DNA of 34,037 nt, taken from NCBI GenBank assembly GCA_964547725.1, contig CAZJOO010000001.1, positions 1,535 through 35,571 of the forward strand, given 5' to 3'. This document shows positions 962 to 33,971 of this stretch, piece after piece; position 1 is the first letter of the stretch; every line of letters starts with the position of its first letter. The notes beneath the pieces are model-generated. The model was not told where the DNA came from and did no database searches. It saw nothing but the letters and a program-made list of their open reading frames with translations. Position numbers and translations under genes: made by a program. Source of the stretch: an uncultured Candidatus Saccharibacteria bacterium. Its GTDB lineage: Bacteria > Patescibacteriota > Minisyncoccia > Minisyncoccales > Minisyncoccaceae.

Positions 962-980
962 ATTATGCTAAAATAGTAAT

Positions 981-6173: not shown

Positions 6174-6184
6174 ATAATATCATT

Positions 6185-7813: not shown

Positions 7814-7827
7814 AAGTCCACCCATTT

Positions 7828-8131: not shown

Positions 8132-8191
8132 TTTTGTTGTAAACTGATTTAATATGTTTAGAAGATATTAAAAAACAGCATTAAAATTTAT

Positions 8192-9044: not shown

Positions 9045-9612
9045 CATTAAAAAAAGAATTTTCGTTGGTATTAATTTAGACGAAGACGACAAACAAAAAT
9101 TGGTTCGGATACAGAACAGCATTTCTCGTTATTTTCCTGAAAATGACCCAATTGTTTGGACAAAGAAAGAAAATTTACACATAACAGTTTTCTTTGTTGG
9201 TTTTGTTTACGATACAGATTTGTTCGATATTTTAAATCAAGTAGAAAAAGCCGCCAAAGGATTTAAACCTTTTTTCCTTAAATTTAACGAAATAGATTTT
9301 ATGCCAAGAGGAGATAACAAGAAAATGGTTTGGGTTTTTGGAAAACAAAATAAAGGACTAGAAGGTATTAGGCAGAAAATAAAACAAAACCTTTTAGAAA
9401 CAGAAAGAGAGGTTGAGTCGTTTACTCCACACATAACCATGGGAAGGATCACTCAATGGGTTTTGAGAAAAATAGAAAAAGAAGAAATCCCTAATATTAA
9501 CGATGAGATACCAATCAATTTTGAAATCTTAGTTGACTCAATAGATATTATGGAAAGTGAACTTAGAAAAGGAGGTGCAAAATATACAATTTTAAAAAAT
9601 ATAAAACTATGA
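9034..9612 (+). CDS. thpR: 2H phosphoesterase (RNA 2',3'-cyclic phosphodiesterase / LigT-like)
   Basis: 192 aa with two HxT motifs, 'HITVFF' and 'HITMGR', at the spacing typical of the 2H family. Confidence 0.75.
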   Translation: MASNIKKRIFVGINLDEDDKQKLVRIQNSISRYFPENDPIVWTKKENLHITVFFVGFVYDTDLFDILNQVEKAAKGFKPFFLKFNEIDFMPRGDNKKMVWVFGKQNKGLEGIRQKIKQNLLETEREVESFTPHITMGRITQWVLRKIEKEEIPNINDEIPINFEILVDSIDIMESELRKGGAKYTILKNIKL

Positions 9613-10919: not shown

Positions 10920-11652
10920 ACTTTTAGTAGTAATTGTAATTATCGGAATCTTAGCCGGAGTAATAATTATTTCAACGAGTTCTTCTATTGAAAAAGCTAA
11001 CCTTACAAAAATTGATGTTTTCTCAAATACGATAAAGAATAAATTAATGCTAGATATGGTGGGAAGTTGGAAGTTGGATGAAGGGACAGGAACTTCTATT
11101 ACAGACTCTTGGAATAACAATAACGGTGTTTTAACTGGAGCCGCTATCTGGAGAACAGGGACAGATTGTATCTCAGGTTCGTGTTTAGAATTCCCGGGAG
11201 TTGGAATGGTAACTATTCCTTATGCAAGCCCATCGACCTTAAATGAATTAACCGTAGACTTATGGATTAAGGTGTCTTCACAAGACCAACATTGGGAAGA
11301 GTTCTTTAAGATAGGAATTGATAGAATAGAAACCGGAGCTAATGGTACTTTTGGTTTATGGACAAACGGATATACTCACAGCAATATATGGAAAGCTAAT
11401 GAATGGTTCCATTTGGTATATTCGTCGAGTGCAACCCTGAACCAAACCAGTATTTACATAAATGGAAACATTATACAAGATAAAGCTGCATACACCAACC
11501 TTCCGTTTGTAGCAGGAAATATCCTATTTGGCACATGTTACTCATTAGAAAGCTTTAGTGGTTTTTTAGATGAAGTAAGGATATATAATAAATATATTAA
11601 TGCTGACCAGGCAAAAAGTCTTTTTTTAGAATCCATAGCAGCTAAGCAATAA
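10891..11652 (+). CDS. Type IV pilin-like protein (prepilin N-terminal motif) with a LamG/concanavalin-like domain
   Basis: 253 aa. The N-terminal 'KSFTLIELLVVIVIIGILAGV' is a class III (prepilin) signal. The C-terminal 'GFLDEVRIYNKYINADQAKSLF' is typical of LamG-type jelly-roll domains. Overlaps the murC end by 29 nt. Confidence 0.7.
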   Translation: MKAKSFTLIELLVVIVIIGILAGVIIISTSSSIEKANLTKIDVFSNTIKNKLMLDMVGSWKLDEGTGTSITDSWNNNNGVLTGAAIWRTGTDCISGSCLEFPGVGMVTIPYASPSTLNELTVDLWIKVSSQDQHWEEFFKIGIDRIETGANGTFGLWTNGYTHSNIWKANEWFHLVYSSSATLNQTSIYINGNIIQDKAAYTNLPFVAGNILFGTCYSLESFSGFLDEVRIYNKYINADQAKSLFLESIAAKQ

Positions 11653-16551: not shown

Positions 16552-17634
16552 ATGACAATTGAAATCTATAACGCTATTAGACTTTTGGGATTAACTGCTG
16601 TGGGCTCAATCATTGCTTTTGTTTTTGCTCGTTTCTTAATACCATACTTAAATCAAAAACAGTTTTGGAAAAAGAAAGTAAGAGCACTTACAATCGATGG
16701 AAAAGATGCTGAAATTTTTGCCAAATTTCACAAAGAAAAAGAAACAAACACGCCAAGGGGAGGAGGAATAATTATCTGGGGAACTGTTTTCTTGATAGCT
16801 ATTTTTTTTGCCGCCTTGCCACATATAACTAATGTTTGGTGGTTGGAAGATTTGAACTTTATTTCTAGAGCCGAAACATGGCTTCCTTTTTTTACAATAA
16901 TTGTTGCGTCTATAATTGGGCTAGCAGATGATATGTCGGTGGTTTGGGGAAAAGGAAAGTATATTGGTGGTGGATTAAAATTCTCTTTTAGAATGGCCCT
17001 TATTTCAGCTATTGGATTAATAGGAGGACTTTGGTTTTATTTAAAATTAGGCTGGACAACTATTCACATTCCTCTTCTTTTTAATTTTCCAGAAGGAATA
17101 GATTTTAACTTTGGAATTTTCTTTATCTTGCTTTTTGTTGTAGTTTGCTTAGCTTGTTGGGCTGGAGGTGTTGTGGACGGAATTGATGGATTGGCTGGAG
17201 GAACTTTCGCCTCTATTTTTGCTGCTTTTGCTGTAATTGCTTTTTCTCAAGGATTATATAACCTAGCAATCTTTTGTTCTATTATTACCGGAACCTTATT
17301 TAGCTTTTTATGGTTTAATATTCCTCCCGCTAAATTCTACATGGGAGAAACTGGGGTGATGGGACTGACGATAACTATGGCTGTGGTTTCTTTTTTAACA
17401 AACTCTATTGTTGTCTTACCAATCATCGCTGGAATTTTAGTTATAGAAGCTGGGTCAGTTATCCTTCAACTTCTTTCTAAAAAATTCAGAGGTAAAAAAA
17501 TATGGCAATCAACTCCTATCCACCATCATTTAGAAGCAATGGGTTGGACACAGCCTCAAATCTCTATGAGGTTTTGGCTGTTAGGGGTAGTTTTTGCGAT
17601 TATAGGAGTGACTATTCAACTATTATGGACTTAA
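16552..17634 (+). CDS. mraY: Phospho-N-acetylmuramoyl-pentapeptide transferase
   Basis: 360-aa polytopic protein with the motifs 'GLADD', 'DGIDGLAGG' and 'TPIHHHLE'. Confidence 0.95.
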   Translation: MTIEIYNAIRLLGLTAVGSIIAFVFARFLIPYLNQKQFWKKKVRALTIDGKDAEIFAKFHKEKETNTPRGGGIIIWGTVFLIAIFFAALPHITNVWWLEDLNFISRAETWLPFFTIIVASIIGLADDMSVVWGKGKYIGGGLKFSFRMALISAIGLIGGLWFYLKLGWTTIHIPLLFNFPEGIDFNFGIFFILLFVVVCLACWAGGVVDGIDGLAGGTFASIFAAFAVIAFSQGLYNLAIFCSIITGTLFSFLWFNIPPAKFYMGETGVMGLTITMAVVSFLTNSIVVLPIIAGILVIEAGSVILQLLSKKFRGKKIWQSTPIHHHLEAMGWTQPQISMRFWLLGVVFAIIGVTIQLLWT

Positions 17635-18974
17635 GAAAAAAACATCCTTGTTTTAGATATAAGGAATATAAGTATGATTTTAAAAATGGAGATTTAAATA
17701 TTTCTTTTAATTTTTCGATTGAACCAAACATTGAATTTCATCCTAATTTAAGAATTAAAAATGTTTCTGGAAAAAATATAGATTTAGAAATTCTTGAAAA
17801 TTTAATTTTTAACTTAGGAATGATTGAGCTTGTGAGTTATTATAAAGCAACTTGTTCTCCTCAAATTATTATCGAATGCGGCAAGCTAAACCAAAAACAA
17901 AAAAACTTTTGGGAAAAACTTTACTTTAATGGGCTTGGAGAATTCTTTTTCCAAAATAAAATAGATTTTACAACAAAAAATTTTTTAAAAATTGAATGTA
18001 TTTCAAATAAAGAATTTAAAAAGAAGAAAATTAAAGCCTCGGACAAAATACTTCTTCCTATTGGAGGAGGAAAAGATTCTATCGTCTCTTTAAATCTTCT
18101 TCTAAAAGAAAATATTTACTGTTTTGGGCTAAATAAGACAAAAGAAATTGAGCAAACAATCGGAGAGAACAAACATATTTACGCAGAAAGAGAGATAGAT
18201 AAAAATCTCCTCAGGCTCAATAGGGAAGGCTATTATAACGGACACACTCCTTTTTCTGCATATTTAGCTTTCTTAACAACACTAACTGCTTATCTTATTG
18301 ATGCAAAATACATTGCTTTGTCTAATGAAAGAAGTGCTAACGAAGAGACTACAAAATACTTTGGTAGAAAAATAAATCACCAATATTCAAAAACTTTTGA
18401 ATTTGAAAATGATTTTCGAAAATATTCAAAAGAATTTTTAATCGAAGGTATAGAATATTTTAGCTTTTTAAGACCTTTGTATGAAATCCAAATTGCAGAG
18501 ATATTTTCCAGATTTACAAAATATCACTCTATTTTTTTAAGCTGTAATGAGGCTAATAAAACCTGTTCTGGAACAAAAGAAAAAAGTTTAAAATGGTGCG
18601 GCAAATGCCCTAAATGCCTATTTATTTTTTCAATCCTATATCCTTTTTTAAAAGAAGAAGAACTTCTAAATATATTTGGAAGAAATCTATTTGAGGATAA
18701 AAATCTAAAAAGAGAAATGCTCCAACTGATTGGCAAAGAAAAAACAAAACCTTTCGAGTGTATCGGAACTACCAAAGAATCGCTATTAGCTTTTTATTTA
18801 AGTTTTAAAAAGGCAGAAGAAAAAAGATATTACCTGTTAGATTATTTAAATAAAAACAATTATTTTAAAAATATAAGAACAAAACATATTTTAAATGATT
18901 TCAACAAAAAAAATAACCTTCCAACAAAATTTAAAAAAATATTAAAAAATGAAATTGAAAGAACTAAAAGATAA
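17625..18974 (+). CDS. PP-loop (QueC-like) ATP-pyrophosphatase-family protein embedded in the dcw cluster; candidate MurL-type UDP-MurNAc-L-Ala-L-Glu epimerase
   Basis: 449 aa counted from the ATG at 17625, which forms an ATGGACTTAA overlap with the mraY stop. It carries the PP-loop-like 'LLPIGGGKDSIVSL' and the cysteine cluster 'WCGKCPKC'. It lies between mraY and murD and overlaps both. That it is a CDS is solid; the function is inferred. Confidence 0.5.
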   Translation: MDLRKKHPCFRYKEYKYDFKNGDLNISFNFSIEPNIEFHPNLRIKNVSGKNIDLEILENLIFNLGMIELVSYYKATCSPQIIIECGKLNQKQKNFWEKLYFNGLGEFFFQNKIDFTTKNFLKIECISNKEFKKKKIKASDKILLPIGGGKDSIVSLNLLLKENIYCFGLNKTKEIEQTIGENKHIYAEREIDKNLLRLNREGYYNGHTPFSAYLAFLTTLTAYLIDAKYIALSNERSANEETTKYFGRKINHQYSKTFEFENDFRKYSKEFLIEGIEYFSFLRPLYEIQIAEIFSRFTKYHSIFLSCNEANKTCSGTKEKSLKWCGKCPKCLFIFSILYPFLKEEELLNIFGRNLFEDKNLKREMLQLIGKEKTKPFECIGTTKESLLAFYLSFKKAEEKRYYLLDYLNKNNYFKNIRTKHILNDFNKKNNLPTKFKKILKNEIERTKR

Positions 18975-23020: not shown

Positions 23021-23977
23021 ATGAACGAATCCAACACTCCTATCATTAAACATATCCCCGATTTTTTAGATTATTTAGAAATTGAACGTGGACTCTCAAA
23101 TAATACTCAAAAAAACTATAATCGCTATCTTAAGAAGTTTTGCTTTTGGCTAAAGTCAAAAAACAAAGAAAATATACTACCTCATGAACTTACCCCTGAA
23201 GATATTTGGGATTATAGACTCTATTTAGCTCGTTATACAGACGTCAAAGGCAAACCATTGAGTAAACTTACCCAGAACTACTATTTGATAGCCCTAAGAA
23301 GCCTTTTAAGCTATTTTACGGATAAAGACGTTCAAAGTATCCCCTCGGACAAAATAAAGCTTCCTAAGGACTCTCGAAATGAAAAAAATGTAAAATTCCT
23401 TTCATTAGATCAAATAGAACGTCTTTTAATGGCACCGAAGGTAAATAATGCTCAAGGAATTAGAGACCGTGCTATTCTAGAAAGCCTTTTTTCAACAGGA
23501 CTTCGTATTGCCGAACTCGTTGCTTTAAACACAGAACAATTTAAAAATATAAAAAATAATACTAATTTAGAAGTTAGTATTATTGGTAAAGGAAATCGTC
23601 CAAGAACTGTTTATTTCTCAGAGAGATCTCTTGATTGGATTAAAAAATACTTAGAGGTTAGAGATGATGATTGTAAAGCCTTATTCATTAACTACCGGTC
23701 TAGAAAAGACTCAGACAAACGTTTAACCGTTAGGTCTATAGAAAGACTTGTTAAGAACTACGCCACCTTAGCAAATATTCCATTCTTCACAACTCCTCAT
23801 ACATTAAGACATTCCATGGCTACTGATTTATTAAACAAAGGAGTTGATTTAAGAACCATTCAAGAATTCCTAGGACACAGAAATATAGCTACCACTCAAA
23901 TATATACCCACGTTACTAACAAAAAATTAAAAGACGTTCACAAGGAGTTCCACTCGGGAAAAGAGATGAAGAATTAA
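23021..23977 (+). CDS. Tyrosine site-specific recombinase, XerC/XerD-like
   Basis: 318 aa. N-terminal core-binding domain and the catalytic residues in 'TGLRIAEL', 'HTLRHSMAT' and 'GHRNIATTQIYTHV'. About 10 of 22 Arg codons are CGN, against almost exclusively AGA/AGG in neighbouring genes. Confidence 0.85.
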   Translation: MNESNTPIIKHIPDFLDYLEIERGLSNNTQKNYNRYLKKFCFWLKSKNKENILPHELTPEDIWDYRLYLARYTDVKGKPLSKLTQNYYLIALRSLLSYFTDKDVQSIPSDKIKLPKDSRNEKNVKFLSLDQIERLLMAPKVNNAQGIRDRAILESLFSTGLRIAELVALNTEQFKNIKNNTNLEVSIIGKGNRPRTVYFSERSLDWIKKYLEVRDDDCKALFINYRSRKDSDKRLTVRSIERLVKNYATLANIPFFTTPHTLRHSMATDLLNKGVDLRTIQEFLGHRNIATTQIYTHVTNKKLKDVHKEFHSGKEMKN

Positions 23978-24036
23978 AATGTCGCACAATAAAAAAGGAG
24001 GCCGTACTTAATACTTCCCCCACTTTTTTGTTTAAA

Positions 24037-24171
24037 TCATTCCCAAATTTCCGCATAGTCTCGCGGGATAGAAGGTTTTGACTTCTTAGGAATAACACCA
24101 TTCGCATAAAAAGTTTTTCTTTTTCTGGATGTTTGATTTAATCCACTTTTAAGATTGTTTCTTGCGACCAC
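24037..24171 (-). CDS. Speculative 44-aa basic peptide (GTG start)
   Basis: I translated this by hand as VVARNNLKSGLNQTSRKRKTFYANGVIPKKSKPSIPRDYAEIWE. It lies downstream of a minus-strand TTGACA-17-TATATA element and an aagg Shine-Dalgarno-like sequence. No family recognised, and it could be non-coding. Confidence 0.2.
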   Translation of the reverse strand: MVARNNLKSGLNQTSRKRKTFYANGVIPKKSKPSIPRDYAEIWE

Positions 24172-24187
24172 AATAAAAACCTTATTC

Positions 24188-24262
24188 TATATAGCTTTTT
24201 TATTTCGAATTGTCAAATAATCCCCTATTTTTGTTGACACTACCCTTTTTTTGTTTTATGCT
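24188..24262. promoter_or_regulatory. Back-to-back divergent sigma70-like promoters
   Basis: Minus strand: TTGACA (24216-24211), 17 nt, TATATA (24193-24188). Plus strand: TTGACA (24234-24239), 17 nt, TATGCT (24257-24262). The two -35 boxes are 17 nt apart. Confidence 0.4.
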
Positions 24263-24371
24263 AAGAATAGCTATTTAAAATACCAAAGAATGGTCATTTT
24301 ATGTTTATTTTAAAAATATATATAAATTGGCTATTCTTTATCTTGAAAAGAATGGTCCTAGAGGTTTGTAA

Positions 24372-25154
24372 ATGGATGCAATAATTATTTCGCACAGTCG
24401 AATTGATTCAGCTTCCGGAAAAGTAAGTGAAGTTTGGTCCTCAATTGTTGAAGGAGCGATAGAATTCGCCCTTGAACACAAGAAGGAAATAGCTGTTCTA
24501 GCCCCAACCAAGTCATATAATGACATTGAGGAATATTATTCCTTGGTTCGGAAAGCAACAAAGCTAACCAAAAAAATCATTCTTCCTTTTTCAAAAGGAA
24601 GTCCAGAATTTGTTGAGATGTTGAACGATTTTAAGGGTGAAATCGTATTCGTAAATACGCCACCACCTAAGGAGTGGAAAGAAAAACTCACTAAAGAAAT
24701 TCCCTATGTTGGACTCGATGAGTATTTAATAGGACTCACTGCAGCCGAAACTCTTCTTGGTTTTAAAAACCACTATCGAAAAGTCCTCGTATTGAGACAT
24801 GAAAAATCACACGAAGGCCACAATCTTCGAATCGAGGGAATTAAATCTTCCGGACTTGAAGTCGTGGAATTATTCATTGATCCCGAAAAAGGAAAATGTG
24901 TTATTCCACCCAAACTAAGACACCTTTCGGTCATAACCTTGGGTATAAGAGGAACAGAAGTAGCTTTAAGAAGCAAGTCAAAAACTATTGTTGCTATTGA
25001 TAGTAACGAAAAAATTGAAACTGCTCTCAAGGAAGGCAAAATTCTTGCCATACTTCTCCAAGACCCAAAATCGCAAGGAAAACTAGCGGCAGAAAAACTC
25101 TTTTCAGGAGATAAAAAAGATTATTTTATGAGACCACAAATCTTATACGGATAA
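24372..25154 (+). CDS. Cytoplasmic periplasmic-binding-protein type I (RbsB/LacI effector-domain-like) protein
   Basis: 260 aa with no signal peptide. The pattern 'IVFVNTPPP...YVGLDEYLIGLTAAETLL...KVLVLRHEKSHEGHNLRIEGI...IVAIDSNEKIETALKEGKILAILLQDPKSQGKLAAEKL' follows the ribose-binding-protein/LacI sugar-binding fold. It aligns end to end with the C-terminal ~245 aa of the ORF at 32112-33971. An AGAGG Shine-Dalgarno sequence lies 8 nt upstream. Confidence 0.6.
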   Translation: MDAIIISHSRIDSASGKVSEVWSSIVEGAIEFALEHKKEIAVLAPTKSYNDIEEYYSLVRKATKLTKKIILPFSKGSPEFVEMLNDFKGEIVFVNTPPPKEWKEKLTKEIPYVGLDEYLIGLTAAETLLGFKNHYRKVLVLRHEKSHEGHNLRIEGIKSSGLEVVELFIDPEKGKCVIPPKLRHLSVITLGIRGTEVALRSKSKTIVAIDSNEKIETALKEGKILAILLQDPKSQGKLAAEKLFSGDKKDYFMRPQILYG

Positions 25155-25167
25155 TCTCTTTTTTTTT
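25118..25167 (+). terminator. Possible terminator (weak stem, strong T-run)
   Basis: agattat (25118-25124) / ataatct (25151-25157) inverted repeat with a large loop, followed by nine T (25159-25167). Confidence 0.3.
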
Positions 25168-25221
25168 AAATAAATTATTTAAGAAATTTCCTATTTAAAA
25201 AAAATATGCTATATTAATTAT

Positions 25222-25875
25222 ATGAAAATAGACTTACATTGCCACACAAAATATTCAAAGGATGCGATGTCTTCCTTGGACGAAATATTTTATCAAGCAC
25301 AAAAAAGGGGCTTAGATGGAATCGCTATTACTGACCATGAAAACACAAAGGGTTGGAATGATGCCATAATTGCAGCAAAAAAATACAACATGCAAGTTAT
25401 TCTGGGAGAGGAAATAAAATCTAAAAATGGTGATATTTTAGGGCTTTTTCTAAATAAAGAAATAAATATGAAAGGAGAAAATCCTGAAAAAATCATTAAT
25501 GAAATTCACGCCCAAAATGGAATCGCAATCATCCCCCACCCTTTTGACTTTAACAATCCTTTTAAAGATGTAGAAAAATATTTAAGTCTTGTTGATGGAA
25601 TAGAAATATTTAACGCTCGAAGAATTTTTAGTAAAGATAATGATAAGGCAAAAAAACTATCAGAGAAATATCCTCACTTAAATATAACCGCAGGAAGCGA
25701 TAATCATACCCATAAGGCTATTGGTTATGCTTACGTAGAATCGCAAGCAAACAATTTAGAAGATTTTAAAAAAGATTTATTAAATAAGAACGTAAGATGG
25801 TTTGGTAAAAAAGCACCGCCATTATATCTCCTAACTCCTTCTTTAAAGAAAATAAAAAATGCTATCTTTAGATAG
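25222..25875 (+). CDS. PHP-domain metal-dependent phosphoesterase
   Basis: 217 aa with 'IDLHCHTKYS', 'IAITDHEN', 'GEEI', 'IIPHPFD' and 'AGSDNHTH', the histidine/aspartate motif series of the PHP family. Confidence 0.8.
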   Translation: MKIDLHCHTKYSKDAMSSLDEIFYQAQKRGLDGIAITDHENTKGWNDAIIAAKKYNMQVILGEEIKSKNGDILGLFLNKEINMKGENPEKIINEIHAQNGIAIIPHPFDFNNPFKDVEKYLSLVDGIEIFNARRIFSKDNDKAKKLSEKYPHLNITAGSDNHTHKAIGYAYVESQANNLEDFKKDLLNKNVRWFGKKAPPLYLLTPSLKKIKNAIFR

Positions 25876-25885
25876 CATTTCTTAT
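25854..25885. terminator. Hairpin between the convergent PHP and CDP-alcohol transferase genes
   Basis: Perfect inverted repeat tgctatct (25860-25867) / agatagca (25870-25877), preceded by an A-run and followed by tttcttatt. It spans the PHP stop codon. Confidence 0.5.
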
Positions 25886-25894
25886 TATCCTCTC

Positions 25895-26506
25895 TTATTT
25901 AATATCTTTTTTATTTAAATTAATTGCTGAAAAAAATCTTTGCAATGCTGTGAAATTAGAAAGTACAGCGATAACAATTAAAATAATTGTTGCAATGTAT
26001 GCTTGAGATAAAGTCAATAAAATAAATATTATAAAAATTAAAATGATTCGTTCTCCTCTAGACATTAATCCTCCCTTTAATTCCTGATTAACTAGTTCTT
26101 TTTCTTTTGCTGCAGCCTTGGCATAAGTAGTTACAATCGAACCAAATATTGCTAAGAAAACCCAAGCATGTGCAGGAATTAAAATCTCTGGCAAAGCTAC
26201 AAAAAGAAGACCAAAAAGCATTATTCCTTCTACATATCTATCAACAACAGTGTCTATATATGCTCCTGTTTTAGAAGACATGTTTTTTGCTCTCGCGACA
26301 GAACCATCAACAAAATCTAGAATACCGGCGAAAAAAAACATTACAAAAGCAGGTCCGAAACTAAGAGTGACTGTAAAGTATAATCCTGCTAAGGCGAAAA
26401 CTACGCTTAAAGCTGTCCATTGATTAGGTGTAATTGGCAACTTTCCTAAAGTTCTACCAATAAACCTTTCCTCTGATTTAAACCACTCTCTTTTTAGATC
26501 TAACAT
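25895..26506 (-). CDS. CDP-alcohol phosphatidyltransferase family protein; from context, a candidate (archaetidyl/phosphatidyl)inositol-phosphate synthase or a DIPP-synthase-like enzyme
   Basis: 203-aa polytopic protein. It has the complete family motif D-x2-DG-x2-AR-x8-G-x3-D-x3-D in 'DFVDGSVARAKNMSSKTGAYIDTVVD'. It is the last gene of a minus-strand run that contains a MIPS gene. Confidence 0.8.
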   Translation of the reverse strand: MLDLKREWFKSEERFIGRTLGKLPITPNQWTALSVVFALAGLYFTVTLSFGPAFVMFFFAGILDFVDGSVARAKNMSSKTGAYIDTVVDRYVEGIMLFGLLFVALPEILIPAHAWVFLAIFGSIVTTYAKAAAKEKELVNQELKGGLMSRGERIILIFIIFILLTLSQAYIATIILIVIAVLSNFTALQRFFSAINLNKKDIK

Positions 26507-26510
26507 AAAT

Positions 26511-26822
26511 TTATTTTTTTAATTTTTCTAATAAATCTTCTGTGTATGATATCATTTTTTGAAGTTCTTCTTTTCCCTTCTCTGTTGTCCTATAGGCTTT
26601 CTTGCTTTGGAATCTTTCTTTTTTAATATAACCTTCTTGCATTAGAGTATAAAAAACTTTTTGCTTTTGTAAAAAACTAGGCAAAAAATCAAACTTCTCT
26701 AAAATTTTCGCATTAAGAGAATCTTTAACAATTTCCTGATCTTTTCCTAAGAAAAGAATATAAACCCAAAGATTTCTTTCTTTGGTAAAATCTTTGAATC
26801 TTTTAAGTGGAGTTCTTGACAT
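26511..26822 (-). CDS. PadR-like winged-helix transcriptional regulator (short form)
   Basis: 103 aa. 'NLWVYILFL...' plus 'FYTLMQEGYIKKE...AYRTTEKGKEEL' follows the PadR wHTH pattern. It is a paralog of the ORF at 29339-29638. Confidence 0.65.
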   Translation of the reverse strand: MSRTPLKRFKDFTKERNLWVYILFLGKDQEIVKDSLNAKILEKFDFLPSFLQKQKVFYTLMQEGYIKKERFQSKKAYRTTEKGKEELQKMISYTEDLLEKLKK

Positions 26823-26842
26823 AATATTTAAAATTATATTAA

Positions 26843-27955
26843 TTATCTTTCTCTTTTATTTAAAATAAATTCTTCTACCATGTCTCTAGCTTTATCATCT
26901 GTAATTTGTTCCATTGGATGTTTCATGAAATAAGCTGATGGTGATAAAAGTACTCCTGTTGTTCCCCTATCTAAAGCTAATTTCATCATTCTAATAGCAT
27001 CGATGATAACTCCTGCTGAGTTTGGAGAATCTTCAACAGACAATTTAAGCTCAATTGATACTGGAACGTTACCAAACTTTCTTCCCTCCATTCTTAAGAA
27101 ACAAATCTTGTTATCTTTTAAAAATGGAATATAATCTGATGGTCCAATGTGCAAATTATTGTAATCAAGCCTTTGATTTAACTCTGACTCTACCGCTTCA
27201 GTCTTAGAAAGCTTTTTAGATTTTAATCTCTTTCTTTCAAGCATGTTTAAGAAATCGGTATTTCCCCCAAAATTTAATTGGTATGACTTATCAATAATAA
27301 CTCCTCTTTGAGAGAACAAATGAGTTAAAGTTCTGTGAGTAATTGTTGCTCCAACCTGAGCCTTTACATCGTCTCCCAAACAAGGAAGTCCTGCAGCTTC
27401 AAATTTAGCAGCCCAATCTTTGTCTGAACAAATAAACACTGGCATTCCATTAATAAATCCTATGCCGGCATCAATACAAGCTTGAGCATAAAACTCAGTT
27501 GCTTTTTGAGAACCTACTGGCATGTAGTTAACTAACATTTGCGCTCCAGATTCTTTTAAAACCTTAACTACATCAACGGGCTTTTCATCAGAAACAACGA
27601 ATCTTTCGTCTTCTGGATATTCAGCCATATGTTCAGCAACACCATCTAAAACTGGTCCCATTTGTACCTTTACTCCAGACTTAGGAATATTTCCACAGAA
27701 CACAATGGTATTGTTTGGTTTTTCGAAAATAGCTTCGGTAAAATCCTTTCCTATTTTTCTTTTATCTATATCAAAAACGGCAACAACTTCTATGTCGGAA
27801 ATTTTGTAATCCCCAATTATATTGTGCATTAGTCCTGGAACTAATTCGTCATTAGTGCTGACGTTTTTATAATACTCTAATCCTTGGATAAGTGAACTGG
27901 CACAGTTACCTAATCCAGCGATAGCAATCTTAATTTTTTTATTATTTCCTTCCAT
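26843..27955 (-). CDS. myo-Inositol-1-phosphate synthase (short archaeal/bacterial type), copy 1
   Basis: 370 aa. Rossmann motif 'KIAIAGLGNCASSLIQG', plus 'GLPCLGDDVKAQVGATI', 'SYQLNFGGNTDF' and 'DSPNSAGVIIDAIR'. Confidence 0.9.
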   Translation of the reverse strand: MEGNNKKIKIAIAGLGNCASSLIQGLEYYKNVSTNDELVPGLMHNIIGDYKISDIEVVAVFDIDKRKIGKDFTEAIFEKPNNTIVFCGNIPKSGVKVQMGPVLDGVAEHMAEYPEDERFVVSDEKPVDVVKVLKESGAQMLVNYMPVGSQKATEFYAQACIDAGIGFINGMPVFICSDKDWAAKFEAAGLPCLGDDVKAQVGATITHRTLTHLFSQRGVIIDKSYQLNFGGNTDFLNMLERKRLKSKKLSKTEAVESELNQRLDYNNLHIGPSDYIPFLKDNKICFLRMEGRKFGNVPVSIELKLSVEDSPNSAGVIIDAIRMMKLALDRGTTGVLLSPSAYFMKHPMEQITDDKARDMVEEFILNKRER

Positions 27956-27998
27956 TTTTTTATATTAAATTAATTAATCTTAATATCTTGTTATTGTT

Positions 27999-28026
27999 AT
28001 TTTACACCGGTAAAATAGTTTGTCAA
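27999..28026 (-). promoter_or_regulatory. Internal promoter for MIPS copy 1, with an overlapping palindrome
   Basis: Minus strand: TTGACA (28026-28021), 16 nt, TAAAAT (28004-27999), starting directly after the MFS stop codon. The inverted repeat TTTTAC-N4-GTAAAA (28000-28015) covers the -10 box and the spacer. Confidence 0.45.
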
Positions 28027-28028
28027 TA

Positions 28029-29210
28029 TTACCTGTCTTCCTCATTATTTACTAAGTTAAATACATTAAAAATATTATCCTTAAATATCATCACAAACAT
28101 TCCAATTAATGCTAAAACAAAACACATAATAAATGGAGCATTAATGCTTCCAAAATCAATTAGCAATCCAGCAATCAAGGGCCCAATAACTCTTGCTACG
28201 TATTGAAAAGTGTCACTGATAGAAATTCCCGTAGCCCTAATTTCCTCTGCAACATTAGTGGATATAAAAGCTTTAGTAATGTTTAAACCTCCTGCCCTTC
28301 CTATTGTGAACAACCCCATTAGTAGAATAAAAACAAATATATTTTTTGTATATATAAAGAATATGGAAGAAATAGCAATTAATAACGAAGTAATTATTAA
28401 TGATTTTTTGTGCCCCATCCCATCCATAACTTTTCCTAAGCCTAGTAATCCAACAATACTAACGATGGATCCAAAACCAATAATAATACCAACTGTTGCT
28501 ATGTCGAAATTAACAGCTATCAGATACAGAGGAACAGCTAAGCTAATAACTGATTCAAAAAATCCTGTTAAAAAACCACCGACTCCTAAATAAAACAAGA
28601 AGTCCCATTTTTTAGAACCTAGGTCATTAAAAAGCTTTTTAACGCTAGGCTTCTTTTTGTCTTGTACCTTAACAACGTTTTTATTTTTAAGAAAATAAGA
28701 AAAGATTAATCCTATAACTCCAAGTATCGCCCAAACATAAAAAGCCATCTCCATTCCACCGCTTCTTAAAACTAACATTCCTCCTATGATTGGTCCTATA
28801 AAAGCACCTATTTGATAAAAACTTTCTAGTTTAAATAAAGCTTTTGTTTTTTCTTTATGTAAAATAGTTACAATGCTACTAATAGAGGAATAATAAAAAT
28901 TACTCAATATTCCTATTACAAAATACATTAAAGCAAAAAAAGAAATAGAGTCGGATATTGTGAATAGTAAAGCCACCAAAGGCAATGCAAAAAAAACATA
29001 AAATAATGTTTTTCCTTTTCCGAGTGCATCAGAAACCCATCCACAAGGCAATGCCAAAAATTTAGCACCCGCATAAAGAGAATAGATTATACTTATCTGA
29101 GAAGCGCTTGCAACTCCAGCAAAAAAAGCAGGAAAAACCTTTGAAGTAATATTAAATCCAGTTGACCAGAAAAATTGCAATAAGTAAGGTATTTCTTTAT
29201 ATAGTTTCAT
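28029..29210 (-). CDS. Major facilitator superfamily transporter
   Basis: 393 aa with about 12 hydrophobic segments and an MFS loop-2/3-like motif, 'GWVSDALGKGKT'. Confidence 0.8.
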   Translation of the reverse strand: MKLYKEIPYLLQFFWSTGFNITSKVFPAFFAGVASASQISIIYSLYAGAKFLALPCGWVSDALGKGKTLFYVFFALPLVALLFTISDSISFFALMYFVIGILSNFYYSSISSIVTILHKEKTKALFKLESFYQIGAFIGPIIGGMLVLRSGGMEMAFYVWAILGVIGLIFSYFLKNKNVVKVQDKKKPSVKKLFNDLGSKKWDFLFYLGVGGFLTGFFESVISLAVPLYLIAVNFDIATVGIIIGFGSIVSIVGLLGLGKVMDGMGHKKSLIITSLLIAISSIFFIYTKNIFVFILLMGLFTIGRAGGLNITKAFISTNVAEEIRATGISISDTFQYVARVIGPLIAGLLIDFGSINAPFIMCFVLALIGMFVMIFKDNIFNVFNLVNNEEDR

Positions 29211-29227
29211 CTCTTAAATAATAACAC

Positions 29228-29256
29228 ATTTTATTTTGTTGTTCAAATATGTTCAA
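29228..29256 (-). promoter_or_regulatory. Promoter of the MFS-MIPS-PadR-transferase operon, containing a tandem TTGAACA repeat
   Basis: Minus strand: TTGAAC (29256-29251), 17 nt, TAAAAT (29233-29228). The ATG lies about 18 nt downstream. TTGAACA occurs twice, 10 bp apart (plus strand TGTTCAA at 29240-29246 and 29250-29256): once as the -35 box and once in the spacer. Confidence 0.5.
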
Positions 29257-29338
29257 CTTTTAATTCTTCGCTAATAGTGTTACTATTTTAGTAGTACTTC
29301 TTATTTACTTATTTCAAAATATTAATTATCATTAAAGT

Positions 29339-29638
29339 ATGAATCCTTTTCTAAGACTAAAAAAATACAACACGAAAGGAAACCTATGGGTATATATTCT
29401 AACCCTACTAAAAGACAAGCCTAATTATGGCTGGGACTTCCCTTCTGATATAGAAAAAAGGTTTGGCTTTAGGCCTGGAAAAATAACTCCATACAGAGTT
29501 CTTTACGTTCTTGAGATAGAAGGACTTGTTAGCAGTGAGCAATTAGGACAAAGAAGGGTCTATTCTATTACTAAAAAAGGACTAAAAGAGCTTGAAAAAG
29601 TTAAAGATTTCTATAATAATATTATACGTGTCCTATGA
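29339..29638 (+). CDS. PadR-like winged-helix transcriptional regulator (short form)
   Basis: 99 aa with 'NLWVYILTLLKDKPNYGWDF', 'PYRVLYVLEIEGLV' and 'RRVYSITKKGLKEL'. It is divergent from the MFS operon. Confidence 0.7.
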   Translation: MNPFLRLKKYNTKGNLWVYILTLLKDKPNYGWDFPSDIEKRFGFRPGKITPYRVLYVLEIEGLVSSEQLGQRRVYSITKKGLKELEKVKDFYNNIIRVL

Positions 29639-30063
29639 AAGAAAAAAAAGAAACAGAAATTCAAGAAGTAATAAATCATTTTTTCTACACCAAAGGATAC
29701 ACACTAGAACAAGTAAAGGAAGATTCTAAAAAAAGAAAAATTATTTATTCTAGATTCACTAGACCTGCTAAAGAATTAATTGAACTTGCTGGCTCTAAAG
29801 AAGCGGCCAAAAAAGCTATTAGCATAGTTTCTGATTGGGCAAAATCAAGAAATCTTGATTATGCTATTGAAACTGTTTTTAAAAAGTGGTTAGAATTAGA
29901 TAGTCTTAAGCCAAAAGAAGTTGTTAAAAAACCTTTTTACGAAGATCAACCAATGGTTTGGTCTCAAATGAAAAAGAAGTGGTTTGTTATCAATGACCAA
30001 GGAGAATGGCTTGAATTTGCCGGAGACGAAAAAAAAGATATCGTCTGGAAGATAAAAAAATAA
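29635..30063 (+). CDS. Hypothetical protein, translationally coupled to PadR
   Basis: 142-aa ORF with an ATGA overlap onto the PadR stop. It is lysine-rich and soluble. No family recognised. Confidence 0.5.
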   Translation: MKEKKETEIQEVINHFFYTKGYTLEQVKEDSKKRKIIYSRFTRPAKELIELAGSKEAAKKAISIVSDWAKSRNLDYAIETVFKKWLELDSLKPKEVVKKPFYEDQPMVWSQMKKKWFVINDQGEWLEFAGDEKKDIVWKIKK

Positions 30064-30076
30064 AATCAATAAAAAT

Positions 30077-30643
30077 ATGTTATCATACTCAGAACTTATA
30101 AAAGGAAAAGTAATAATTGTTAATGAACAACCTTACGAAATCGTAGAGGCTCAATCTGTGTTTAAAGGTAGAGGACATTCCTACCTTCAAACAAAGCTTA
30201 AGAATCTAGCAACTGGAAGCGTTATTACAAAAACAATTCAACCAAGAGATAGCTTTGAAGAAGCTGATATAGAAAAAAAGGAAGCTAAATTTATCTATAA
30301 CAATAAAGGAAAACTTGTTTTTTCAGAAGTTGATAATCCTTCAAATAGATTCGAATTAACTGAAGAACAAATCGGAGAAGAAGCAAAATTCTTGAACACT
30401 AACGGAATGGTAGAAACTCTCCTTTTTGGCGATAAAATAATCAACGTTAAACTTCCTATTAAAGTACAATTAAAAGTAATAGAAGTTACTCCAGGAGTTA
30501 AAGGCGATAGAGCCGCTTCGGGTAATAAAGCTATTACTCTTGAAAATGGGACTATTATGAACGCTCCCCTCTTTATTAATAAAGATGATATTATTGAAAT
30601 TAATACAGAAAGAGGAGAATACGTTAGAAGAACAAATGAGTAA
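30077..30643 (+). CDS. efp: Elongation factor P
   Basis: 188 aa with EF-P domain I-III architecture. The tip loop 'VFKGRGHSYLQTKLKNLATG' carries Arg at position 32. Confidence 0.9.
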   Translation: MLSYSELIKGKVIIVNEQPYEIVEAQSVFKGRGHSYLQTKLKNLATGSVITKTIQPRDSFEEADIEKKEAKFIYNNKGKLVFSEVDNPSNRFELTEEQIGEEAKFLNTNGMVETLLFGDKIINVKLPIKVQLKVIEVTPGVKGDRAASGNKAITLENGTIMNAPLFINKDDIIEINTERGEYVRRTNE

Positions 30644-32024
30644 TCAAACTTGGCCAAAATATTATAGCAATCAATTAATTATAAATGAGAGCGAAAACTC
30701 AAGTATTTCTATTGTTACAGGTTGGACAAAAAAAGAAGATATTTTTAAAGAACTTTCTCCTGCCTCAAAAGAAAAAACTTTGATTGTTGGCCAACTATAT
30801 TCTAAAGAAGGAATAAATTTTATCATTAGGAATATATTTCTAAATCCTAAAATTAATTTTTTAATTATCACTGGAAAAGATTTATCCGGAAGCGTAAAAG
30901 AATTTAAAAGCTTTTTAGCTGGAGATAAAAAAGAATATATCCACGAAGAAATACCTGAAGAAAAAGTAAACGAATTTGTAAATTATTTTAAAGAACATTC
31001 TCTTTTTGTCGAAGCTTCGGAAATTAACGAAGCCCTAAGCAATATAGACTTAACATCTCTACCTAAAACCTGGACTAATGAGCCGCTTAATTTTGAGGAT
31101 CATTTAGCTAAAGGAGTAAATACTTTTCCTTCTGAAAAAGTTGGTTTTAGAATTGAAGGAGAAAAAGTTTCTGATGTTTGGCTTAAGGTTCTAGATAGAA
31201 TCTTCAAATTCGGTTTTGAAAAATTAAGTTCTTATGGAGAGAAGCAAAGAGAGTTAATTAATATAATGACAGTTATTAGCAATGACGACCCTGATAATCC
31301 ATATCTTCCTTCCTACCTCTATTTCAACAAAGATGACTTATTAAACTATTACCCCCAAGTGATGACAGACTGTGTTTTTGAAGGTGTAGAATACACTTAT
31401 GGAAGTAGATTAAGAAAACACAACGGAATAAATCAAATAGAAGAAATAATTAATGAACTTAAAAAAGAAAATTATTCTAGAAGGGCAATTGCTTTTACTT
31501 GGAATGTTGAAAAAGATTGCGGAAACGCAAAAGCTCCTTGTCTTGATTTAGTTCAAACCCTAGTCCAAAAAGATACCCTCTATTTAACCGCCTATTTTCG
31601 CAGTAATGATATGTTTAGAGCCTGGCCTCAAAATGCTTACGGACTCTTAAAAATTCAAAAAGAAATAGCCGAAGCGTTAAGCTTTAAAATTGGTAAGTTG
31701 ATTGTCGTTTCTTGTTCTGCTCATATTTACGAACGTGATTTTCTTGAAGCGCAAAAAATGATTGGAAAGAACAAACCAAAACTAGAATGTCAAATAGACC
31801 CAAGAGGAAATTTTGTTATTGAAGTTAATAATAATGAAATGATTGTAAAACATTTTGACGCCGAAGGAACTTTTTTGCAAGAATTTAAAGGAAGTAGTGC
31901 TGAAGAAATTAGAAATCAAATCAATACCTTTATAACAGACATCACTCACGCAATATATCTAGGAACAGAATTGCATAAAGCAGAGCTTGCTTTAAAAAAC
32001 AAAACTCCATATATTCAAGGATAA
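30636..32024 (+). CDS. Thymidylate synthase (ThyA family) with an N-terminal extension of about 170 aa
   Basis: 462 aa counted from the ATG at 30636, which forms an ATGAGTAA overlap with the efp stop. ThyA core: 'RRAIAFTWN', the catalytic Cys in 'AKAPCLDL', and 'YFRSNDMFRAWPQNAYG'. The N-terminal part 'WPKYYSN...SISIVTGW...GINFIIRNIFLNPKINFLIITGKDLSG' resembles MtrA/DUF4346-type domains; that match is from my recall only. Confidence 0.75.
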   Translation: MSNQTWPKYYSNQLIINESENSSISIVTGWTKKEDIFKELSPASKEKTLIVGQLYSKEGINFIIRNIFLNPKINFLIITGKDLSGSVKEFKSFLAGDKKEYIHEEIPEEKVNEFVNYFKEHSLFVEASEINEALSNIDLTSLPKTWTNEPLNFEDHLAKGVNTFPSEKVGFRIEGEKVSDVWLKVLDRIFKFGFEKLSSYGEKQRELINIMTVISNDDPDNPYLPSYLYFNKDDLLNYYPQVMTDCVFEGVEYTYGSRLRKHNGINQIEEIINELKKENYSRRAIAFTWNVEKDCGNAKAPCLDLVQTLVQKDTLYLTAYFRSNDMFRAWPQNAYGLLKIQKEIAEALSFKIGKLIVVSCSAHIYERDFLEAQKMIGKNKPKLECQIDPRGNFVIEVNNNEMIVKHFDAEGTFLQEFKGSSAEEIRNQINTFITDITHAIYLGTELHKAELALKNKTPYIQG

Positions 32025-32029
32025 TACCA

Positions 32030-32058
32030 TTGACATTTTAATCTATTTATTCTATAAT
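32030..32058 (+). promoter_or_regulatory. Consensus sigma70-type promoter of MIPS copy 2
   Basis: TTGACA (32030-32035), a spacer of exactly 17 nt, then TATAAT (32053-32058). A GGAG Shine-Dalgarno sequence sits at 32100-32103 and the ATG at 32112. Confidence 0.65.
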
Positions 32059-32063
32059 TAAGT

Positions 32064-32081
32064 CATGAACTTTTGTTCATG
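32064..32081 (+). promoter_or_regulatory. Perfect palindrome at the predicted transcription start (an operator or a 5' hairpin)
   Basis: CATGAAC (32064-32070), tttt, GTTCATG (32075-32081). It begins 6 nt after the -10 hexamer. Confidence 0.5.
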
Positions 32082-32111: not shown

Positions 32112-33971
32112 ATGTCACAAAAAATTAACACCGGAAAAGAATGTACCGAAAACACGATCAAAATCGCAATTGCAGGAATTGGTAACTGTGCAAGTGCCTT
32201 AATTCAAGGTCTAACATATTACCGAAAAATTAAATCTGGCTTTATACCAGGATTAATGCATCCTACTATTTGTGGTTACCTTGTCTCTAATATTCAAATT
32301 GTTGCAGCAATCGATATCGACAAAAGAAAAGTTGGAAAAGATGTCTCGTTAGCAATTTTCGCCAAACCAAATAACACTACCAGATTCTGTAAAAAAATGC
32401 CTAAAACAGGCGTTGTTGTGCAAATGGGGCCAGTGCTTGATGGTGTATCCGAACTAATGAGAACCTATCCAAAAGATAGGACCTTTTTACCATCTAACGA
32501 AAAACCAGTCGATGTTGTAAACCTGCTCAAAGAAACAGGAGCACAAATATTAATCAACTACATGCCAGTCGGCTCAAAAAAAGCAACCGCATTTTATGCT
32601 CAAGCAGCGTTGGATGCTAATGTGGCTTTCATCAATGCCATGCCAGAATTTATTTGTTCCGACGAAACTTGGGCACAGAAATTCGAAGACGCTGGAATCC
32701 CTTGTTTAGGAGATGATGTAAAATCACAGTTGGGAGCAACTATCATTCACAGAGCGTTAGCTCATTTATTCTCTCAAAGAGGAATATCGTGTAAAAATAG
32801 TTACCAATTAAATGTTGGTGGAAACACTGACTTTGCCAATATGAAAGATCCACTGAGACTTAGTTCGAAAAAACTTTCTAAAACAGAGTCTGTCGAGTCT
32901 CAGTTATTAGAGAGACTCAATTACGACGATCTTCATGTCGGCCCCGCTGACTACATACCTTTCTTGGGGGATGAAAAAGAAGCATTTATTAGTATGCTTG
33001 GAACTGGTTTTGGAGAAAATCAAATCAAAATTTTTACCAGGTTGCAAGTAACCGATTCACCAAATTCTGCTGGTGTCATTATCGACGCCATTAGATTGGT
33101 TAAGGTTGCTCTCGATCGAAAAATAGGAGGACCACTCCTTGCATGTTCAGCCTTCTTAATGAAGCATCCACTCATTCAAATGACTGATGATGAAGCTTGT
33201 GAAGGAGTAGAAAAATTCATTCGCGGAGAACATAAATGGATCACCGTTTTTCCATCAAGAACAAGCGACCTTTCTCAGTCAGGCGAATTTTACTCAGAAA
33301 TCTTTACAGAAATCTGCAGAAAATTAGAGTACTTAGCTGAGAAAAATGATGTAACGTTTTGGAATAATTCCGTGTCGGAAGAGTACTGTAACGAAGATGA
33401 ATACCTTTCAAAATTAGAAGAGGTTATTTCCAGCAACGAGAATAAAGAAGAAAACACTTTATTTGTTTCATTCTGTTACATTAATAGAATGAAAGAGATG
33501 GAAGAAATTCTTAAAAAATTCTCTGGAAAAATAGTTGCCGTAAACTCTCCCTCTCCGGAAAATATCAAGTTACCAATCCTTACATATCTGGGACCAGACG
33601 ATGTAAAGATTGGAGAATTGCTTGCTATTGAGGCCTTAAAACATAAGAAAGCCTCCTCCAAAACATATATCTTAGAACACAAGGAAAATTATTATCCATT
33701 TGTTCTGAGAGAAAAAGGCATTAAAAGCCTTGTTCCCGAAGCCATCGTCGTTTCTTTATTCGAAGGAATTCCAGAGATAAGCAAGGAAGACGTTGTTATC
33801 AGTTTCGGAAATAGAAGTACTGAAGCCCTAATCGATGCAAACATCAAAGCAATAATTATTGCAATTGATGAAAACAAAAGAATCAAAAAAGAGACTAATG
33901 TTATTTGCTTAAATCAAGAAGTTTCACAGTACGTAAACAAAATAGGAAGTATGCAAGCTGCAACTTCCTAA
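32112..33971 (+). CDS. myo-Inositol-1-phosphate synthase copy 2, fused to a C-terminal RbsB/LacI-like (PBP type I) domain
   Basis: 619 aa. Residues ~1-372 align along their whole length with copy 1 and keep all the MIPS motifs ('KIAIAGIGNCASALIQG', 'SYQLNVGGNTDF', 'DSPNSAGVIIDAIR'). Residues ~375-619 align with the 260-aa ORF at 24372-25154 ('IVAVNSPSPEN...YLGPDDVKIGELLAIEAL...YILEHKENYYPFVLREKGI...IIIAIDENKRIKKE'). Confidence 0.85.
   Translation: MSQKINTGKECTENTIKIAIAGIGNCASALIQGLTYYRKIKSGFIPGLMHPTICGYLVSNIQIVAAIDIDKRKVGKDVSLAIFAKPNNTTRFCKKMPKTGVVVQMGPVLDGVSELMRTYPKDRTFLPSNEKPVDVVNLLKETGAQILINYMPVGSKKATAFYAQAALDANVAFINAMPEFICSDETWAQKFEDAGIPCLGDDVKSQLGATIIHRALAHLFSQRGISCKNSYQLNVGGNTDFANMKDPLRLSSKKLSKTESVESQLLERLNYDDLHVGPADYIPFLGDEKEAFISMLGTGFGENQIKIFTRLQVTDSPNSAGVIIDAIRLVKVALDRKIGGPLLACSAFLMKHPLIQMTDDEACEGVEKFIRGEHKWITVFPSRTSDLSQSGEFYSEIFTEICRKLEYLAEKNDVTFWNNSVSEEYCNEDEYLSKLEEVISSNENKEENTLFVSFCYINRMKEMEEILKKFSGKIVAVNSPSPENIKLPILTYLGPDDVKIGELLAIEALKHKKASSKTYILEHKENYYPFVLREKGIKSLVPEAIVVSLFEGIPEISKEDVVISFGNRSTEALIDANIKAIIIAIDENKRIKKETNVICLNQEVSQYVNKIGSMQAATS

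Follow-up and report, generated by a model that had tools for sequence, protein, structure and literature searches.

Why would a bacterium with a small genome join an inositol-synthesising enzyme to a sugar-binding fold? The question is raised by one gene in a 34,037-nucleotide stretch of DNA (hereafter the window) from an uncultured Candidatus Saccharibacteria bacterium, a member of the candidate phyla radiation (CPR). The gene, at 32112..33971 (+), is an intact open reading frame (ORF) of 619 amino acids (aa) with an ATG start, and its coordinates include the stop codon. Family and structure matches identify aa 1-372 (32112..33227, +) as a myo-inositol-1-phosphate synthase (MIPS) domain. Profile, Foldseek and pocket comparisons identify aa 373-619 (33228..33968, +; two-lobed part approximately aa 373-614) as a periplasmic binding protein (PBP) type I, or Venus-flytrap, domain. 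No de novo route to inositol is known other than MIPS, whose regulation in prokaryotes is poorly understood. We find that the MIPS-PBP fusion is real and recurrent, though rare. Our tentative answer to the question is that the flytrap domain would place this enzyme under the control of a small ligand or supply it with one.

The fused gene encodes a complete MIPS domain

A complete MIPS occupies aa 16-372 of the 619-aa fusion protein. The Pfam family Inos-1-P_synth (PF01658) matched aa 208-316 with an E-value of 9.7e-30 and a score of 103.4 bits, above the gathering cut-off of 27 bits, and aa 16-370 covered positions 1-355 of NCBIfam TIGR03450 (E 2e-121). The score against TIGR03450 was 405.5 bits, which does not reach the 638-bit equivalog cut-off for INO1 of the mycothiol type. 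We conclude that Pfam, fold and catalytic residues place the fused N-terminal domain in the MIPS family, yet outside the curated TIGR03450 equivalog by score.

The best solved relative of this domain is Ino1 of Mycobacterium tuberculosis (1gr0; E 2e-110). Over the structural alignment 1gr0 is 46% identical to the fused domain, compared with 33% for Ari2. The fusion carries a Rossmann-type motif for nicotinamide adenine dinucleotide (NAD) of the GxGxxA/S form, GIGNCAS, at aa 22-28. When the domain was aligned to MIPS from Archaeoglobus fulgidus (1u1i), residues D225, N255, D261, K274, K278, K306, D332 and K367 of that enzyme corresponded to D202, N234, D240, K253, K257, K289, D315 and K351 of the fusion, so that every tested catalytic residue is kept. 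For three of these positions the Protein Data Bank (PDB) holds A. fulgidus mutants: 3qw2 (N255A), 3qvw (K278A) and 3qvx (K367A). The catalytic and phosphate-loop motifs KSQLGAT, NVGGNTDF and SKKLSKT in the window fusion are identical to those of canonical MIPS, and the motifs that carry catalytic residues are kept in other, more diverged fused proteins as well. The initial annotation had described a complete MIPS with intact Rossmann and catalytic motifs, and the Pfam match, the TIGR03450 coverage and the residue mapping to 1u1i all back that description.

The C-terminal domain has a predicted two-lobed PBP type I fold

A free-standing protein of 260 aa, encoded at 24372..25154 (+) and carrying an 'SHSR' motif, is a cytoplasmic PBP type I paralog of the fused C-terminal domain by Pfam, AlphaFold2 and Foldseek. 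The initial annotation had reported that the two align over their full length. Pairwise BLASTP recovered only part of this alignment, pairing aa 462-600 of the fusion with aa 79-227 of the paralog (152 aa covered, 34% identity, E 2e-12). The claim holds by other means: MAFFT gave an end-to-end alignment of the pair with 26-28% identity, both matched positions 1-234 of the family profile, and both are predicted to share the fold. Searched against the PDB, the family profile matched 3rot (E 1e-9), 4ru1 (E 1.4e-5), 5xss (E 2e-5) and 6gq0 (E 4.5e-5). The 260-aa paralog also passed the Pfam threshold for Peripla_BP_4 (PF13407), with 38.1 bits against 35.1. The similarities of the N-terminal half to MIPS and of the C-terminal half to the 260-aa paralog are far beyond chance.

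We modeled both proteins with AlphaFold2. The full 619-aa fusion, modeled from a 60-sequence alignment, gave a mean predicted local distance difference test score (pLDDT) of 90.2 and a predicted template modeling score (pTM) of 0.76, with blocks of the C-terminal domain at approximately 88-97. In Foldseek searches of the PDB, the N-terminal part had 1gr0 as its top match (target-normalized template modeling score [TMt] 0.94, root-mean-square deviation 2.1 Å) and Ari2 (6k96) as its second. The C-terminal part matched 3rot_A (E 3e-7, TMt 0.70), GanP, 4ru1, 5hko and XylFII. The 260-aa paralog was modeled with a pLDDT of 96.2 and a pTM of 0.92, and its matches included GanP (E 3.6e-16, query-normalized score [TMq] 0.79-0.82), RbsB (2dri, TMq 0.76), XylFII, 3rot and 4ru1, with TMq ranging from 0.76 to 0.82 over the matches. 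In the predicted models, then, the C-terminal region is two-lobed and PBP-like and its paralog likewise, and the assignment of the protein as MIPS joined to a cytoplasmic PBP type I domain, paralogous to the 260-aa protein, is upheld by profile and fold.

The junction in the AlphaFold2 model is short and rigid: between the last MIPS helix (aa 359-371) and the first PBP strand (aa 375-379) lie only about three residues. Because the pTM of 0.76 exceeds the value of about 0.60 attainable from the larger domain alone, the model suggests a defined arrangement of the two domains.

The same fusion occurs in independent assemblies

A trivial explanation would be that a frameshift or a chimeric assembly has fused a MIPS gene to a neighboring PBP-like gene. 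The fusion is indeed found in a small share of MIPS homologs, and free MIPS proteins among the 120 best matches measure 361-386 aa, except for P0006. (Proteins and protein clusters are given P numbers and related loci L numbers.) P0006, at 541 aa, was considered as a further fusion because of its length and rejected, since part of its MIPS sequence is duplicated internally and it has no PBP domain.

A word-indexed search with the C-terminal domain alone returned only the fragments P0001 and P0002; the family was revealed by an exhaustive profile search of 1.84 billion representatives. At 50% identity this search yielded about 10 fused and about 25 free-standing clusters. The same architecture with the same junction position was present in P0003 (99% identical to the window protein), in the 11-member P0004 cluster (86%), whose members come from NCBI, ENA, JGI and Logan, and in P0005 (57%). 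At the 50%-identity level there were further fused clusters, P0127, P0134/P0224, P0135, P0149, P0155, P0158 and P0226. These seven are at most 50% identical to the window protein; they too share the junction, and the whole set is drawn from JGI, ENA, Logan and NCBI. P0144 and P0146 are fragments of the fused family. In the source databases the fused proteins are named 'myo-inositol-1-phosphate synthase' or 'hypothetical protein', or are left unnamed. The fusion is also carried by a GTDB representative, 'MAG: Candidatus Paceibacterota bacterium isolate STF1_117' (L011).

Both domains have diverged at similar rates. Between the window and P0004, identity was 86.9% in the MIPS domain and 86.6% in the PBP domain; between the window and P0005 it was 60.1% and 54.8%. 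Both fused domains thus appear to be under similar constraint, which counts against an artefact. In a neighbor-joining tree the fused C-terminal domains formed one clade, separate from all free-standing members, which also counts against an artefact and fits a single fusion event. Of the 37 strong family matches (E<=1e-10), those inspected had MIPS as their sole fusion partner. Because the junction recurs across independent assemblies, we conclude that a joining error, which the initial annotation had named as a possible flaw, is so improbable that it can be set aside.

The PBP-like domain resembles a ligand-binding module

Two familiar roles for a PBP type I domain are capture of solutes for a transporter and effector sensing in a regulator of the LacI type. 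Scans with Pfam and NCBIfam found no helix-turn-helix (HTH) match in either the fused protein or its 260-aa paralog. The paralog has no signal peptide, because its first strand begins at residue 3 of the AlphaFold2 model, and the fused domain is internal to a cytoplasmic enzyme. Among the scanned window ORFs of at least 100 aa there were no genes for an ATP-binding cassette (ABC) transporter, the partner expected of a CUT2 substrate-binding protein (SBP). The PBP-like domain is therefore neither a transport SBP, for want of a signal peptide and ABC genes, nor a LacI regulator, for want of an HTH. One free-standing relative, P0124 (L003 10001..10744, 247 aa), bears the JGI name 'DNA-binding LacI/PurR family transcriptional regulator'. 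This name is probably an over-annotation, because 247 aa leaves no space for an HTH.

The ligand pocket was mapped by comparison with Escherichia coli RbsB. In this alignment, RbsB N13, F16 and D89 correspond to S395, F398 and N478 of the fusion, and R141, D215 and Q235 to R533, D586 and Q606; the position of F398 is a tryptophan in most other family members. The mapped positions are conserved in fused and free-standing members alike. Of the 11 RbsB ligand positions, six rank among the top 20 of 271 alignment columns by conservation (Fisher p = 2.7e-5). The predicted pocket candidates in the fused domain are R383, S395, F398, N478, H523, R533, D586 and Q602/Q606.

Some conserved features are specific to the family: an arginine in the beta1-alpha1 loop ('SHSR'/'PSRT', R383), His523, and a glycine at the position of RbsB N190. 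Because of the invariant Arg383, His523 and the enlarged pocket, the domain may be suited to an anionic ligand, probably a phosphorylated sugar or cyclitol.

The fused gene accompanies a canonical MIPS and a conserved inositol island

The window contains a second MIPS gene. A canonical stand-alone MIPS of 370 aa, 63% identical to the fused N-terminal domain, is encoded at 26843..27955 (-), 4 kb from the fused gene. The genome therefore has two MIPS paralogs, one canonical and one fused. Canonical MIPS orthologs are syntenic in L001, L002, L003, L006, L008, L009 and L011, and a canonical MIPS accompanies the fused gene in every fused-gene locus with enough flank.

The canonical gene lies within a conserved inositol island (23021..30643). 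In order, the island comprises an XerC-like recombinase (23021..23977, +), the free-standing PBP-like gene, a PHP-domain phosphoesterase, a CDP-alcohol phosphatidyltransferase, a 103-aa protein, canonical MIPS, a major facilitator superfamily (MFS) transporter, a 99-aa ORF at the PadR position, a 142-aa protein (29635..30063, +) and elongation factor P (EF-P; 30077..30643, +). A 479-aa ThyA-like gene (30585..32024, +) comes directly before the fused gene. The phosphatidyltransferase (25895..26506, -; Pfam PF01066, E 1e-17) is a candidate phosphatidylinositol-phosphate synthase, and its gene is conserved in all related loci. The PHP protein (25222..25875, +; Pfam PHP, E 3e-15, and PHP_C) is a candidate pathway phosphatase; in L001 and L003-L005 its gene stands next to the PBP-like gene, and the gene is also found in L006, L008 and L009. 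The MFS gene (28029..29210, -; Pfam MFS_1, E 1e-36) likewise adjoins the PBP-like gene in L001, L003 and L010. Directly downstream of canonical MIPS, the 103-aa protein (26511..26822, -) is a weak PadR-like or winged-helix candidate with sub-threshold Pfam matches to PadR, DUF4364 and HTH_45, and a gene of 99 to 103 aa occupies its position in related loci, a match by position alone. The 99-aa ORF (29339..29638, +) diverges from the MIPS side of the island and holds the PadR position by synteny, genes at that position in L001, L003, L006, L008 and L009 carrying PF03551 (PadR).

The island is syntenic in L001, L003-L006, L008, L009 and L011. In all loci with enough flank (the window, L001, L003-L005, L006, L008, L009 and L011), a member of the PBP-like family lies within the island of MIPS, CDP-alcohol phosphatidyltransferase and PHP genes. 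The complement of fused genes varies. L001 has one, inside the island, and L011 has one directly after EF-P. L009 has one together with two free PBP-like, two PHP and two CDP-alcohol phosphatidyltransferase genes. L006 and L008 each have two in tandem, followed by a HAD hydrolase. L003-L005 have none, with only 82 bp where L001 has its fused gene. In L002 only a remnant is left, covering part of the C-lobe of the PBP domain; it lies at 589..1104, is 62% identical to aa 447-611, and sits beside the 103-aa gene and canonical MIPS. Because only this C-terminal part survives, the gene appears to have decayed in L002. We conclude that the fused gene is an accessory paralog. The initial annotation had overlooked this status, along with the canonical MIPS, the island, the tandem pairs and the rewritten patch of the fused MIPS domain described below.

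The tandem fused genes lie at 8115..10001 and 10001..11809 in L006, with a 1-nt overlap, and at 6094..7989 and 7992/8001..9917 in L008. In both loci a 'DSYNSAG' subtype precedes a 'DSPxSA' subtype. P0155 and P0127 form one such tandem pair. The arrangement may reflect translational coupling or a heteromer. In some relatives the island is extended by an ATP-grasp-like gene (255-268 aa), an IMPase-family gene or a HAD hydrolase.

In the window, the 87-bp spacer in front of the fused gene contains a promoter-like site, TTGACA-17-TATAAT (32030..32058, +), which agrees with the sigma-70-type consensus at 12/12 positions. GGAG stands 8 nt before the ATG. The same promoter consensus is found upstream of the fused orthologs in L011 and L001, and the fused gene is predicted to be transcribed separately from its own promoter. 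Directly after the -10 box lies a palindrome, CATGAAC-TTTT-GTTCATG (32064..32081, +). In L011, at the 86%-identical ortholog (about 6628..6646), both arms are changed and pairing is kept (ATGGACT..AGTCCAT); the palindrome is absent upstream of the L001 ortholog. This pattern suggests a hairpin in the 5' untranslated region or an operator. The window held no further copies of the palindrome (1 match against 1.03 expected by chance), and for lack of a second copy we rejected the idea of an operator shared within the window.

GC content at third codon positions was 0.32 for the fused gene and 0.29 for the free PBP-like gene, compared with 0.19-0.25 for neighboring genes. Together with the variable position of the fused gene, this is a weak hint of horizontal acquisition or of a different history or expression.

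A ligand-controlled MIPS isozyme as a possible function

We propose, at somewhat less than an even chance, that the fused protein is an accessory MIPS isozyme whose flytrap binds a sugar or cyclitol or a phosphate of one, that closure modulates the enzyme or captures its substrate or product, and that the free paralogs act likewise in trans. The N-terminal domain would cyclise glucose-6-phosphate to inositol-3-phosphate, which would feed the adjacent route of CDP-alcohol phosphatidyltransferase and phosphatase to an inositol lipid. The C-terminal domain would close on a small sugar or cyclitol, for example inositol phosphate or hexose phosphate. Because the N-lobe of the flytrap abuts the last Rossmann helix without a linker, ligand-driven closure could be transmitted to the enzyme, where it would tune activity or hold substrate or product at the entrance of the active site. 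Allosteric control of MIPS, by feedback or by feed-forward, is plausible on these grounds. By Rosetta-stone logic, the free-standing PBP-like paralogs would have an equivalent role in trans, serving canonical MIPS or other enzymes of the island.

Several observations weigh against this proposal. The isolated fused C-terminal domain falls under the Peripla_BP_4 threshold (14 bits, E 0.036, cut-off 35.1). The pocket residue Q606 is not strictly retained in P0004 and P0005 in one alignment, and another alignment places Q602 there. The fused gene is dispensable in relatives, being missing from L003 and reduced to a remnant in L002. Up to three MIPS-like genes per small genome (L006, L008) hint at different products. 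Finally, K286, R294, E296, V303, S344, M365, R374 and E375 are near-invariant in free MIPS and substituted in 11/11 fused sequences. The first six of these, K286 to M365, are at least 90% conserved in free MIPS, and their loss could signal changed oligomerisation or function and not simple regulation.

One alternative is that the fused proteins are neofunctionalised cyclitol-phosphate synthases which, as Ari2 does, use another substrate or make another product. The flytrap would then select or deliver the substrate, and the tandem pairs would be heteromers. We judge this unlikely. In its favor, canonical MIPS is always present alongside the fusion, so a plain duplicate would seem redundant in a small genome. 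The fused MIPS domains have long branches, and many of the conserved residues of free MIPS are lost, only 44/204 of the columns that are at least 90% conserved there being retained across all 11 fused sequences. One fused subtype, which includes P0155 and P0149, has DSYNSAG for DSPNSAG and N(R/E)G(N/E)NTDF for NxGGNTDF. The tandem genes, with their 1-nt overlap, adjoin a HAD phosphatase, and Ari2 (6k96), which is a synthase of a five-membered cyclitol phosphate, is the second-best structural relative. The window fusion, however, is nearer to M. tuberculosis Ino1 than to Ari2 in both identity and E-value, and its catalytic and phosphate-loop motifs are exactly those of canonical MIPS. Where the fused clade is rewritten also speaks against an altered active site. 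The subgroup that includes the window differs from free MIPS by S279A (GPSD to GPAD), by SMLGTGFG in place of RxEGRKFG, and by changes at E308, L309, S312 and E368. Because the fused clade is rewritten outside the mapped catalytic motifs, at places where A. fulgidus MIPS also departs from the bacterial type, the changes more probably represent an altered surface or interface than an altered active site.

A rewritten surface patch is also what one would see if the PBP-like domain were a scaffold, a module for oligomerisation or protein contacts that no longer senses a ligand and docks MIPS to the membrane CDP-alcohol phosphatidyltransferase, the MFS transporter or the PHP phosphatase, channelling inositol phosphate between them. 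The tight and conserved clustering of PBP-like genes with the genes for these three proteins is consistent with docking, and the XylFII-LytS complex (5xsj), in which a PBP type I domain binds a partner, is among the best structural matches. Conservation in the family is nevertheless strongest at ligand-contacting positions of the cleft and not at the surface alone. Systems in which a PBP domain binds a partner, such as XylFII and AmiC, still bind ligand, so that scaffolding and sensing are not exclusive. We consider a scaffold devoid of sensing quite improbable.

A bolder extension of our proposal of a ligand-controlled isozyme, which we regard as doubtful, is that the 'SHSR' PBP-like proteins form an unrecognised class of cytoplasmic receptors for inositol phosphates or sugar phosphates coupled to enzymes. 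They would act in cis with MIPS-like synthases, including coupled tandem pairs or heteromers, and as free proteins in trans, and together would make up a ligand-gated metabolon for inositol-lipid head groups in CPR bacteria. These bacteria do not make most of their own lipids, and their membrane and surface chemistry and host dependence are largely uncharted.

If the proposal of a ligand-controlled isozyme is true, the fusion would show, in compact natural form, a small molecule acting directly on MIPS to control it, and its PBP type I domain would be unusual in regulating, in cis, a metabolic enzyme of the cytoplasm. For the cytoplasmic PBP-like proteins, a small family of orphans, the fusion suggests a function that can be tested. 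It also draws attention to how elaborate the inositol island of ultra-small CPR bacteria can be, with as many as three MIPS-like genes. Biosensors for inositol or sugar phosphates could be built on the isolated PBP domain.

Other features of the window

The window is bacterial by content, encoding EF-P, ribosomal protein L9, MurC/D/G, MraY, FtsW and an S11 D-Ala-D-Ala carboxypeptidase, and has a GC content of about 31%. Some MIPS matches carry 'Pacearchaeota' names, and the ThyA of the window is of the methanogen type. An archaeal (DPANN) origin, which these two features suggested, was rejected on the strength of the bacterial genes just listed and of the Candidatus Paceibacterota label of the closest genome (L011). 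The 479-aa ThyA-like protein combines an MtrA-like N-terminus (aa 18-102) with a PterinBD-DUF4346 C-terminus and is unusual in a bacterial genome; its core scored 170.6 bits against the methanogen-type family TIGR03283, just below the cut-off of 174.55. Because the first 59 nt of its ORF lie within the end of EF-P, its true start is probably an internal methionine.

Within the dcw cluster (MraY-MurD-FtsW-MurG), a 490-aa ORF at 17502..18974 (+) had no Pfam match at E <= 0.001. In L003, which is syntenic here, MurL and a pilin-like gene with Laminin_G_3 occur around the corresponding position. A type IV pilin-like gene with an N_methyl motif and a Laminin_G_3/concanavalin-like domain adjoins the Mur ligase genes at 10891..11652 (+), and a similar gene is found in L003 and L009.

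Comparison with known systems

The closest known relative of the enzyme half is M. tuberculosis Ino1 (1gr0), with which the fused N-terminal domain shares an end-to-end alignment (TMt 0.94), the NAD motif and the catalytic lysine, aspartate and asparagine residues. Relative to Ino1 and TIGR03450, the fusion scores below the cut-off, has an additional C-terminal PBP domain of 247 aa and a rewritten patch, and coexists with a canonical paralog. Ari2 (6k96), the second-best match in both sequence and structure (E 3.7e-58 and TMt 0.83 to the fusion), is likewise a diverged MIPS paralog, but it has no extra domain, and the window fusion is nearer to genuine MIPS.

For the pathway, the known counterparts are bacterial inositol-lipid clusters, namely BT_1522/1523/1525/1526 of Bacteroides and the mycobacterial PgsA1 route (PMC9246714). 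The clusters combine MIPS, a CDP-alcohol phosphatidyltransferase and a phosphatase, as does the island in the window. In the window, by contrast, the phosphatase candidates are of the PHP and HAD types and the host is a CPR bacterium. Term searches of PMC9246714 did not turn up a MIPS-PBP fusion, and we found no description of this architecture in the literature searched.

The PBP half shares its two-lobed alpha/beta fold and profile homology with CUT2-type SBPs (RbsB 2dri, GanP 6gq0, Legionella 3rot and ACEI_1806 4ru1). Equivalents of RbsB R141, D215, Q235, D89 and F16 are conserved in the PBP-like family. Unlike CUT2 SBPs, members of the family are cytoplasmic, with no signal peptide, lipid anchor or nearby ABC transporter; they are of minimal size (about 245-260 aa) and, when fused, are part of an enzyme. 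Unlike RbsB itself, they have glycine in place of N190, and their beta1-alpha1 loop shows an 8-residue insertion together with an invariant 'S-R'.

Other PBP type I domains act as sensors and not in transport. AmiC, of the amidase operon, is a cytoplasmic sensor that controls an antiterminator, and the effector domains of LacI-family proteins such as Cra and TreR bind sugar phosphates and control a DNA-binding domain. In XylFII-LytS (5xsj), a PBP type I module is likewise a partner-bound small-molecule sensor, and it controls a histidine kinase. The fusion differs from all of these: here the PBP module is joined, within one polypeptide, to a metabolic enzyme, and there is no HTH. By analogy, the fused PBP domain would in function most resemble these cytoplasmic or partner-bound PBP sensors, with an enzyme in cis as its output.

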